Shown in pieces: positions 1-2,197 of a stretch of DNA of 2,197 nucleotides. Source of the DNA: Escherichia coli (GTDB lineage: Bacteria > Pseudomonadota > Gammaproteobacteria > Enterobacterales > Enterobacteriaceae); NCBI RefSeq assembly GCF_003334255.1, contig NZ_QOWU01000140.1; one strand, 5' to 3'. The first letter of the stretch is position 1. Each line of letters begins with the position of its first letter. The position numbers were made by a program, and so were the translations under genes. A model generated the notes under the pieces. It was not told where the DNA came from. It worked only from the letters and a program-made list of their open reading frames with translations, and did not search any database.

Positions 1-22
1 AGCTGATAGAAACAGAAGCCAC
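1..22 (-). CDS. insA: IS1 InsA, 5' end only (partial; CDS continues beyond window start)
   Basis: On the - strand, GTG at 22-20 followed by GCT TCT GTT TCT ATC AGC reads (M)ASVSIS, the InsA N-terminus, at the expected distance from the IRL. Confidence 0.6.
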
Positions 23-54
23 TGGAGCACCTCAAAAACACCATCATACACTAA

Positions 55-77
55 ATCAGTAAGTTGGCAGCATCACC
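55..77 (-). repeat. IS1 terminal inverted repeat (IRL, insA-proximal), 23 bp
   Basis: ATCAGTAAGTTGGCAGCATCACC at 55-77 is the reverse complement of the IS1 IRL GGTGATGCTGCCAACTTACTGAT. Confidence 0.85.
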
Positions 78-282
78 TCATGGTGATGGTAATAAAGAGC
101 ACTTTTTTACGCCCTATTCTGTCGCCCATTTTGCCGAAAATAAATGCTCCGACAATACGCGCCACATAACCTGCACCGTAGGTTCCCATTGCCAGAATTA
201 ACGCCATTGCCGTTGATGATTCAGGAAAAAATATTTCATGAAACACTAACGCTGCGCCGAGCGAATATAACTGGAAATCCAT
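73..282 (-). pseudogene. MFS transporter (metabolite:H+ symporter-like, ProP/ShiA/KgtP type) 5' fragment, truncated by IS1
   Basis: The 69-aa ORF contains the TM1 motif DFxLYS..AALVF..FFP and MFS signature G-x-x-x-D-R-x-G-R-K-K (FGKMGDRIGRKKVL) with the spacing seen in ProP/ShiA/KgtP. Native sequence stops at position 78; the last Arg codon spans the IS1 junction and the TGA stop (75-73) lies inside IS1. A protein of roughly 400+ aa is expected, so more than 80 percent is missing. Confidence 0.75.
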
Positions 283-697
283 AATTCACAGGTGTTTTTT
301 CCCATCCTGTGGTTTCCTTGGCGTTTTCTAGGTTTTTTCAGATAGTTGCATTTTTTTAAAAAGCATCCTAAGTTCGATCTCAGTGTCTATCTGGGGCCTA
401 TTTCTGTCCCATATATGCCCCAAAAAAACTCCCCAACAGATAAGTAGTTTTTTCATGGATTTATGCGTAAAATCAAGAACGGCTGGAAATCATTCAATAC
501 TCACACTATCGAAAAATTTACCAGCCAATCGCAGCACGTTCTTGCATAAGGTGTGTCTGCGGTTTTTCAACTATTCAGATACATCACTCCCATCACATTC
601 ATTCCTCCGCATCAAAGGCATATAGGCTATATCACCTTGATATTTTTCTTTTTCAGATAAAAACTGTTATCTATGTATACTTTTAAACCCAATCCGT

Positions 698-710
698 GTA
701 GAGTCTCTAC
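698..710. repeat. perfect 13-bp palindrome GTAGAG-T-CTCTAC; candidate protein-binding or recombination site
   Basis: GTAGAGTCTCTAC is exactly self-complementary about the central T. It shares a 12/13 core (CGTnTAGAGTCTC, 695-707) with the site at 1603-1615 and 17/21 matches over 687-707 versus 1595-1615. Confidence 0.4.
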
Positions 711-1055
711 ATAAGATAGTTTGCAGTTGCCGCTTCAGCTTGCGCCATAAACCGCCTGATTTTTGCTGCCACCTGTTAGCATTCCTGTATACCTGAAACG
801 ACAATGTTTATCTACGAACTTTAAGAACACCCAAGATAAAAATTGTCAACTATATCATATATAACACATTACTAATTCGAGGCTATATGAACAGCATACT
901 GATAATCACATCTCTCCTTATCATATTCAGCATTTTTAGTCATGCCCTAATAAAATTAGGGATTGGCATATCCAATAACCCAGACAAAACCGATGTATAA
1001 GTCAACATATCCTGAATCAGACATACAATATCGCAATGAAAATCAATAATATTTT

Positions 1056-1060
1056 AAGGA
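1056..1060 (+). promoter_or_regulatory. Shine-Dalgarno (AAGGA) for small ORF start at 1069
   Basis: AAGGA at 1056-1060, then an 8-nt spacer (atatcttc) before ATG 1069-1071. Confidence 0.4.
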
Positions 1061-1068
1061 ATATCTTC

Positions 1069-1618: not shown

Positions 1619-2125
1619 ATGTCTCAAATTTTTGCTTACTGTCGGATATCAACGCTGGATCAGACCACCGAAAATCAACGCCGGGAAATCGAAAGTGCAG
1701 GTTTTAAAATCAAACCTCAGCAAATAATCGAAGAACACATTAGCGGCTCAGCAGCAACCAGTGAGCGTCCTGGTTTTAACCGGTTGCTTGCTCGCCTGAA
1801 ATGTGGTGATCAATTGATTGTGACAAAACTGGATCGCCTTGGTTGTAATGCAATGGATATCAGGAAAACAGTGGAACAACTGACCGAAACAGGTATCAGA
1901 GTGCATTGCTTAGCATTGGGGGGCATTGACCTGACCAGTCCAACAGGAAAAATGATGATGCAAGTAATTTCAGCAGTCGCTGAATTTGAACGAGACCTTT
2001 TACTTGAACGCACTCATTCCGGGATAGTAAGAGCCCGCGGCGCAGGGAAACGTTTTGGTCGACCACCTGTGTTAAATGAAGAACAGAAACAGGCGGTATT
2101 CGAACGAATTAAGTCAGGTGGGTAA
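1619..2125 (+). CDS. small serine recombinase (resolvase/invertase family), C-terminus truncated by IS1; probably inactive
   Basis: 168-aa ORF. The N-terminus YCRISTLDQ matches the serine-recombinase catalytic motif (Y-x-R-x-S-T, Ser11 as nucleophile). KLDRLG and the [15 protein letters not shown]-helix align by eye with Tn3/gamma-delta resolvase, followed by a GRPP arm. The native sequence ends at 2120, after only the first helix of the C-terminal DNA-binding domain; the last Gly codon spans the IS1 junction and the TAA stop (2123-2125) is inside the IS1 IRR. Confidence 0.85.
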
Positions 2126-2143
2126 TGACTCCAACTTATTGAT
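2121..2143 (-). repeat. IS1 terminal inverted repeat (IRR), 23 bp
   Basis: GGTAATGACTCCAACTTATTGAT at 2121-2143 is the reverse complement of the IS1 IRR ATCAATAAGTTGGAGTCATTACC. Confidence 0.85.
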
Positions 2144-2197
2144 AGTGTTTTATGTTCAGATAATGCCCGATGACTTTGTCATGCAGCTCCACCGATT
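2136..2197 (-). CDS. insB: IS1 InsB (transposase) 3' end, partial; CDS continues beyond window end
   Basis: The - strand of 2136-2197 translates to ...SVELHDKVIGHYLNIKHYQ followed by TAA, the InsB C-terminus. Confidence 0.6.
   Translation of the reverse strand, partial: SVELHDKVIGHYLNIKHYQ

Follow-up and report, generated by a model that had tools for sequence, protein, structure and literature searches.

The gene-poor stretch upstream of ydfK in Escherichia coli is probably the attR-side end of a Qin-type prophage made of four adjoining phage pieces

The stretch of E. coli DNA analysed here (2,197 nt in full, referred to as the window) was matched over its whole length by thousands of E. 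coli chromosomes in a nucleotide search, with identities of up to 99.8%. The features annotated under these chromosomal matches were ydfJ, ynfT, ydfK and pinQ, together with IS1. In both the best match and K-12 MG1655, ydfJ (minus strand) is followed by ynfT, ydfK and pinQ (plus strand) and then by the tail-fibre genes tfaQ and stfQ. Positions 1-77 and 2121-2197 of the window, which interrupt ydfJ and pinQ, are IS1 termini. The ydfJ-ynfT-ydfK-pinQ end of Qin in K-12 (1632277-1634212) is the same locus with the same genes in the same order, and differs in that ydfJ and pinQ are cut by IS1 copies in the window only. The window is the ydfJ/ynfT/ydfK/pinQ end of the Qin cryptic prophage, cut by IS1 on both sides.

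Positions 283-1068, which the original prediction had singled out as AT-rich DNA with no convincing gene, correspond to K-12 1632286-1633071 and run from the prophage junction to the ydfK start codon. The first 318 bases (283-600) are 100% identical to K-12-type strains, and the right boundary agrees with the annotated ydfK start at 1069. The composition and the low ORF density are real: the GC content is 36.3%, against 43-45% in the flanking coding parts of ydfJ and pinQ, and the only ORF of at least 60 codons (383-625, 80 codons) is indeed spurious. The repeats reported in the stretch were described less accurately. CATCAC, said to be repeated over 583-615, is present just twice (at 582 and 591). 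The 9-mer AGGCTATAT does occur in two copies, the second at 880, as described, and the first at 624 instead of 623. Its recurrence was rightly put at chance frequency, as the window holds 20 pairs of repeated 9-mers compared with 14.7 ± 5.3 in shuffled sequences. CATCAC, too, does not exceed chance.

The claim that no convincing gene is present does not hold, since a validated and conserved gene of 37 codons, ynfT, was missed. Its translation is identical to K-12 YnfT/YnaM and it lies upstream of a ydfK/ynaE homologue, which places it in the YnfT/YnaM family. The protein has been detected by chromosomal epitope tagging, listed as ynfQ at the same coordinates (PMC6001520). A Salmonella phage carries a homologous 37-codon ORF with 78% amino-acid identity, and the nucleotide differences between the two fall 4, 4 and 15 times on the first, second and third codon positions, a clear third-position bias. 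ynfT thus codes for protein. The features of the stretch are collected in Table 1.

Table 1. Features in and next to positions 283-1068 of the window, in window coordinates.
Feature	Position	Strand	Description
att core overlap	274-282		ATGGATTTC (minus strand), codons for Met-Asp-Phe in ydfJ; bacterial/phage junction
att-proximal phage arm	283-435	+	counterpart of the lambda P arm; segment rich in A/T tracts
promoter	346-382	+	TTGCAT (346-351), 17-nt spacer, TAAGTT (369-374), TSS 382; hexamers read from the sequence
putative non-coding RNA, ~187 nt	382-568	+	TSS 382 and 3' end 568; would run across the dinI scar into the terminator
dinI deletion scar	436-469	+	34 nt, where related prophages have 231 nt with nearly the whole dinI ORF
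two-hairpin element E	463-568	+	~105 nt; fold z -3.9
E 5' box	467-480	+	GTAAAATCAAGAAC
E stem 1	481-486 / 521-526	+	conserved 34-nt loop
E stem 2	527-540 / 550-564	+	bulge at 556; T-run 563-567
ynfT-ydfK promoter region	652-711	+	TSS 711; candidate -10 TAGAGT (700-705)
ydfK 5' leader	711-1068	+	358 nt, up to the ydfK ATG at 1069; contains ynfT
ynfT (b4748)	887-1000	+	37-codon small hydrophobic protein, YnaM/YnfT family; RefSeq annotation
ydfK translation-initiation region	1035-1068	+	AAGGAA at 1056-1061; conserved in the Salmonella phage

The left boundary of the stretch is a prophage junction. In the K-12 annotation, the feature "cryptic prophage Qin" begins 9 bp within ydfJ, and the identity between the window and phage Tritos starts at GAAAT(C/G)CAT (274-282), where the bacterial side gives way to the phage side. 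The active phages Tritos, HannyBb, mEp460 and PhiR42_1 hold the entire 786 bp at 97-99% identity; exo, xis and int come before this DNA, and a ydfK homologue, pin and then the tail-fibre genes come after it. The stop codon of the integrase gene is 47 bp ahead of the base equivalent to window 283 in Tritos and HannyBb, where the stretch is contiguous with xis-int across attP. Because of this contiguity and the core at 274-282, the segment 283-435 is identified as the attP arm that ends up at attR. The same arm is 85% identical in the Stx2_499 and GZM7 prophages, both of which are also inserted in ydfJ. From the junction inside ydfJ, phage DNA continues into ynfT-ydfK-pin and the tail-fibre genes, the layout that defines the attR-side end of a Qin-type prophage. 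The suggestion that the DNA was horizontally acquired was therefore correct, the source being a lambdoid prophage.

Within the arm, CACAGG..CCTGTG forms a hairpin at 287-311, and ATGCCCCAAAA at 416-426 is a candidate arm-type site for the integrase. The corresponding motif ATGCCCCA(A/T)AA occurs both there and in the int-side arm of Tritos. Written as ATGCCCCAWAA, it is matched twice in the locus against 0.36 matches expected, a weak excess that was equalled in 13 of 200 shuffles. The arm of the Rac prophage holds four repeats of TTTTGCCCC. This motif and the Rac repeats may be integrase arm-type sites.

Next to the arm, an accessory gene has been deleted. In Stx and other lambdoid prophages, a dinI "moron" sits near the att end, in the same position and between the same flanks (85% identity in Stx2_499); the ORF is present in Stx2_499, where a dinI-like gene lies 132 bp inside the junction, and is gone in the window. 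Relative to L006, the Stx2_499 locus, 283-435 aligns to 2501-2652 and 470-548 to 2884-2961, both at 85% identity, while the dinI coding sequence occupies L006 2632-2874. The flanks of the intact Stx2_499 dinI are thus retained on both sides of the scar, from which about 197 bp have been lost. In phage 2H10, dinI is complete and, as read from the alignment, preceded by LexA-box-like sequences. The homology of 2H10 to the window starts at 443, within the last 17 coding nucleotides of its dinI, and the final dinI codons persist at 443-459 in degenerate form (GATAAGTAGTTTTTTCATGGA compared with GACGAGTGGTTTGTTCGCTAA). The deletion occurs in phiP27 in the same form and is therefore old and shared.

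At the protein level nothing of dinI is left to detect. A tblastn search of the window with DinI gave a best E value of 0.56, at an unrelated site, and neither a DinI-like nor any other peptide was recovered, in line with the earlier statement that the stretch lacks a recognisable protein remnant. A BLASTX search for a degraded homologue, which the original prediction had proposed as the way to expose an ordinary pseudogene, is accordingly expected to come back negative, and "deletion scar" is a better name than dinI pseudogene. The reading of the stretch as a decayed gene holds for 436-469, where nucleotide synteny with Stx2_499 and 2H10 establishes the loss of dinI, and for that segment only.

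Published maps from K-12 point to an RNA across the scar. A transcription start site at NC_000913.2 1630409, whose 51-nt upstream sequence ends at window 382, was recorded with 16 reads in one data set (Kim 2012, PMC3415461 supplement). Term-seq gave "orphan" plus-strand 3' ends at K-12 1632571 and 1632574, equivalent to window 568 and 571 (Adams 2021, PMC7815308 supplement 1), and the sequence quoted there puts both directly past the T-run of stem 2. Two independent published maps, one giving the start at 382 and the other the 3' end at 568, indicate an unannotated RNA of ~187 nt, the two positions being probably the ends of one molecule. This RNA, which is not annotated in RefSeq, folds with -43.8 kcal/mol (z -2.3). 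It is most simply explained as the remnant of the dinI transcription unit.

The RNA would end in a conserved module of two hairpins, here called element E. In a hand-checked seed alignment, stem 2 was paired in 96% of cases, and 4 of its 14 pairs had changes in both partners. In a set of 70 distinct copies fitted to a covariance model, an alignment that leans toward the structure, 93% were paired and 10 of 12 pairs had changed on both sides, compared with 20-45% pairing in slid controls of the same alignment. Stem 2 is thus a conserved RNA structure supported by compensatory changes. The hand-defined seed and covariance model replaced a plain MAFFT alignment of 65 copies, on which RNAalifold missed stem 2 because the variable bulge misaligns the 3' arm. 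On the plus strand, G.U pairs outnumber A.C mismatches by 84 to 28, 40 of these G.U pairs coming from one pair of the stem. Stem 1 also pairs well and is nearly invariant, one of its arms having been set by the search pattern; in the copy of lambda it is weakened.

By sequence, stem 2 has the make-up of an intrinsic terminator, a G+C-rich stem (527-540/550-564) followed by T563-567. A simple terminator scan passed over it on account of its 9-nt loop and its bulge. Across copies, at least 5 T are found among the 9 nt at the 3' foot in 40 of 64. In vivo, the published Term-seq ends support termination at this hairpin, and the evidence on Rho comes from the copy upstream of ykgJ. There, between ecpE and ykgJ, a very strong 3' end (304212/3, score near 95,000) lies directly past stem 2, outside any Rho termination region and with an intrinsic-terminator score of 2.78 (Adams 2021, PMC7815308). 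The 3' end at 568 is probably made by termination and not by processing.

Element E is widespread well beyond Qin. A search with a 22-mer from the block found it in at least 120 viral loci, and the matches listed comprise 63-75 distinct versions with unrelated downstream flanks. Of the 128 copies among these matches, 64 are preceded by a full-length dinI and 56 by unrelated DNA. Among the IMG/VR matches listed, it lies within 350 bp of the upstream contig end in 33 of 120 loci, compared with 5 of 120 for the downstream end, and in prophage contigs it always points inward. The block 443-555 was found in 5410 of 5426 E. coli genomes, at a median of 3 places per genome. The core-genome copy between ecpE and ykgJ adjoins the remnant of a tail-fibre-assembly gene. 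The ynfT-ydfK cassette that Rac, Turner and 2H10 have in common with the window begins precisely where stem 2 does (about 524) and extends through ydfK; upstream of this point they carry the Rac arm, an unrelated ORF or dinI. In the Rac paralogue, ttcC-ynaM-ynaE-pinR, the region in common extends from stem 2 to ydfK, whereas the att arm differs and stem 2 is the sole retained part of E.

Phage lambda, too, has a copy of E at 24162-24256 (80% identity) between ea31 and ea47, oriented in the direction of int. Between ea47 and tfa, which are convergent, stem 2 occurs a second time without the rest of the element. The lambda b region and attP P arm occupy the same position as the stretch, with accessory DNA between attP and the tail-fibre genes and transcription in the int direction, but hold ea genes in place of dinI, ynfT, ydfK and pin. 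In lambda, sib/tI is a separate element adjoining attP. Known RNA families gave no match: permissive Rfam scans of the window and five related loci returned only noise-level hits to CssrB and mir-263 in the region. The 3' hairpin of the CssrB model (RF02799, chromosome-encoded Shigella sRNA B) resembles stem 2 on the opposite strand. Identity with CssrB was rejected, as the scores of 19.5 bits (window) and 30.6 bits (phiP27) fall far below the gathering threshold of 76 and cover the hairpin only, on the wrong strand. An exact-sequence search of the literature available to us found no paper containing the sequence of E, and searches by name (CssrB, EcOnc/dinI, ea31/ea47) returned nothing relevant.

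Downstream of E, the stretch serves the ynfT-ydfK cassette. A transcription start at NC_000913.2 1630738 corresponds to window 711, and the identical sequence has a start at Rac ynaE (Kim 2012, PMC3415461 supplement). The promoter region is perfectly conserved in Rac, Turner and 2H10; a promoter scan also found a consensus-like TTCAGA-18-TATACT at 652-681, upstream of the candidate -10. The accounts available to us that cite Raghavan 2011 describe the ydfK UTR as an RNA thermosensor (PMC4444293), attribute prematurely terminated transcripts to the leader (PMC5089854), and mention that the ydfK 5'-UTR and ttcC-ynaE RNAs co-purify with Hfq (PMC4152368). An early Term-seq 3' end at K-12 1632744 (window 741) falls within the leader (Adams 2021, PMC7815308), and a Fur-box cluster has been predicted near 1044 (17.1 bits, NC_000913.2 1631071; PMC2189734).

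The leader itself contains a 14-nt inverted repeat (800-813/834-847), and its fold at 37 °C is unremarkable (z -0.66). Homology to the Salmonella phage begins only ~50 nt before ynfT, so the far part of the leader is peculiar to the E. coli cassette. Like the cspA-type 5' UTR thermosensors, the leader is long (358 nt), precedes a cold-induced gene and, in the accounts above, is reported to sense temperature. In contrast to those, the window gave no cspA-thermoregulator match in Rfam, the ydfK leader also encodes a small protein, and the Salmonella homologue does not share the part ahead of ynfT. For 568-1068, the proposal of a regulatory or sRNA region is thus borne out by the mapped ydfK promoter, the small ORF and the leader reported as thermosensing and Hfq-bound.

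In our reading, stem 2 is an intrinsic terminator whose strength varies and which marks the borders of exchangeable gene cassettes in the lambdoid accessory region, although several observations sit uneasily with a plain terminator. About a third of the copies elsewhere have no good T-run, which means that the efficiency of termination must vary and that processing could account for some 3' ends. Stem 1 and its loop are conserved far beyond what a plain terminator needs, even if the 22-mer search pattern forces part of this conservation. The lambda copy lies between ea31 and ea47, inside one early transcription unit and not at the end of a unit. E could therefore be more than a terminator, namely a stable sRNA or 3'-UTR-derived regulator whose 34-nt stem-1 loop binds a target or a protein, with the ~187-nt transcript as the Qin version; we regard this as doubtful. 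The loop and 5' box are highly conserved over the distinct versions in unrelated contexts among the matches listed, nearly every E. coli genome has the block (median of 3 places), an RNA 3' end of very high abundance follows the ecpE-ykgJ copy, and in some contexts the sequence just before E reads as a sigma-70-like promoter. The Hfq co-purification mentioned in PMC4152368 for the ydfK-upstream and ttcC-ynaE RNAs would also fit, but the bound RNA may instead be the leader starting at 711, and between the hairpins of E there is no single-stranded U-rich Hfq site. Neither a target nor a promoter common to the copies was found, and stem 1, one arm of which was set by the search pattern, is weakened in lambda. 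The lack of an Rfam match or of a description in the literature searched indicates only that E is undescribed. In our judgement it is unlikely that lambdoid phages possess in E (5' box, stem 1 and its 34-nt loop, and stem 2) a functional RNA module, so far undescribed, which is not just a terminator and gives stable regulatory RNAs such as the ~187-nt RNA of Qin and the abundant RNA ending upstream of ykgJ.

A role of E modelled on sib of lambda is far less probable still. In the excised phage, an int transcript would cross attP and be cut by RNase III at E, leading to 3'-to-5' decay of int mRNA, and integration would part int from E. The geometry of Tritos resembles int-attP-sib of lambda, as E starts about 190 bp past the core on the same strand, and the excess of inward-pointing copies near upstream contig ends among the matches listed would also be expected. 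Lambda, however, has its own sib/tI by attP and E 3.5 kb further on, so the two are different things, and this largely rejects the model. In addition, dinI with its own promoter separates the att arm from E in half of the loci among the matches listed, the integrase gene of 2H10 is oriented away from E, and a stem 2 of 10-14 bp is short for an RNase III site. The notion that the whole stretch is inert, horizontally acquired AT-rich filler silenced by H-NS, free of working elements, is very improbable. The GC content of 36% and the H-NS flags on the Rac ynaE-uspF and ydfK-pinQ spacers (Shimada 2014) would suit it, but the same table carries no H-NS flag on the 283-1068 spacer, the stretch contains two mapped start sites, mapped 3' ends and a small gene that is translated, and active phages conserve it at 97-99%. 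Finally, ORF 383-625 begins with a GTG one base past the start site at 382 and is intact in Tritos, as would befit a leaderless small protein of 80 codons. The mapped RNA 3' end nevertheless falls 57 nt short of its stop codon, the frame crosses a working terminator as well as the junction left by the dinI deletion, stops interrupt it in Stx2_499, and the GTG is missing in GZM7; the ORF was rejected as a gene, and its chance of being one is next to nil.

The preferred reading is that 283-1068 is the attR-side end of a Qin-type lambdoid prophage, consisting of four adjoining phage pieces and not of one feature: an att arm, a dinI scar, a terminator module and the ynfT-ydfK control region. We give this reading a probability of about 0.8. 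The first piece (283-435) is the attachment-site arm on the phage side, which in the free phage comes right after xis-int and attP; a weak promoter inside it fires at 382. In the second (436-469), the dinI "moron" that related prophages keep here has been lost, leaving only a ribosome-site/start region and a degenerate tail. The third (463-568) is the two-hairpin module, whose second hairpin and T-run probably act as an intrinsic terminator that stops transcription running inward from the att side and so probably shields the next cassette. Depending on the phage, the transcript stopped there would be int read-through, dinI or, as here, the ~187-nt orphan RNA from 382. The fourth (568-1068) is the control region of the ynfT-ydfK cold-shock cassette, with a promoter that fires at 711 and the 358-nt leader containing ynfT, said in the accounts citing Raghavan 2011 to sense temperature as RNA and to bind Hfq.

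The stretch looks gene-poor because it combines an attachment-site arm and the scar of a lost accessory gene with a terminator and a long leader of regulatory function. The observation behind the original prediction is real for composition and ORF density and is explained by ordinary, mostly documented prophage-end features; each of its three readings is partly right, and each for a different segment. The stretch as a whole is ordinary, mostly already described and of little consequence in itself, as it belongs to a well-annotated corner of the E. coli K-12 genome. The undescribed items are the conserved terminator module at 463-568 and the orphan RNA that probably ends there. Should the module act as an RNA itself, almost all E. 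coli would have a further regulator, one of phage origin. As a terminator module, it is a widely shared, structurally conserved building block of the lambdoid accessory region, lambda included.

IS1 ends lie at both limits of the window, share one orientation and cut ydfJ and pinQ, so that the ynfT-ydfK segment is flanked by two direct IS1 copies. An intact arrangement is found in strain CPww7, where dinI, the two-hairpin element, ynfT, ydfK and a recombinase gene follow one another (1269-2359 of that locus). This arrangement adjoins prfC, a chromosomal site other than that of Qin, and probably shows the form of the Qin end prior to the deletion of dinI.

Within the window, the 8-mer TTCAGATA occurs four times against 0.10 expected, a count reached in 0 of 200 shuffles. 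Two of its copies take the form TTTTTCAGATA and lie upstream of the two mapped promoters. The TTCAGATA-type sequence may represent a protein-binding or UP-like motif. The ydfK start site (TSS 711) itself carries a perfect palindrome, GTAGAGTCTCTAC (699-711). An RNA 3' end was mapped by Term-seq at 741, 30 nt past this start site (Adams 2021, PMC7815308); no obvious terminator hairpin was found at that position. A second ORF-free stretch, with a GC content of 34%, separates ydfK from pinQ (1303-1618), and H-NS is flagged on this spacer (Shimada 2014 table). It contains the pinQ TSS at 1595 (Kim 2012, PMC3415461), and the 9-mer TAGAGTCTC recurs at 1607-1615, immediately 5' of the pinQ ATG.

Coordinates of insertion-sequence ends, repeats and related elements
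Feature	Location	Remark
IS1 terminus, left inverted repeat as reverse complement	window 1-77	truncates ydfJ
IS1 terminus, right inverted repeat	window 2121-2197	truncates pinQ after codon 168
TTCAGATA	window 337-344, 574-581, 652-659, 2155-2162	last copy within IS1
AGATAAAAAYTGT	window 655, 834; inverted at 801-813	related to TTCAGATA
ATGCCCCAAAAAAACTCCCCAA	window 416-437	
TTTTGCCCC, 4 copies	L009 ~2810-2900	Rac arm
TTTGCCCCAACCATGCCCCATAA	L003 2913-2935	end of phage Tritos int gene
Core-genome two-hairpin element	L010 ~1524-1631; Term-seq 3' end at K-12 304212/3	minus strand; 31 nt upstream of ykgJ
IS009 match	L133 6243-6441	inside phage lambda tail-fibre assembly gene tfa
IS009 match	L010 2028-2226	inside small 'hypothetical' ORF adjoining ykgJ, E. 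coli core genome

TGCCCC-type repeats lie close to three attachment sites, those of Rac, Tritos and the window, and are candidate integrase arm-type sites common to related integrases.

The element copy upstream of ykgJ coincides with an orphan Term-seq 3' end that ranks among the stronger ones, with a score near 95,000 (Adams 2021, PMC7815308), and seems to be the end point of an abundant unannotated RNA. Rfam family IS009 (RF02111) matches both lambda tfa and the ykgJ-adjacent ORF at 188-218 bits; this 'RNA family' looks like a piece of tfa coding sequence. The IS009/tfa match identifies the ecpE-ykgJ-yagU region as an old lambdoid remnant.
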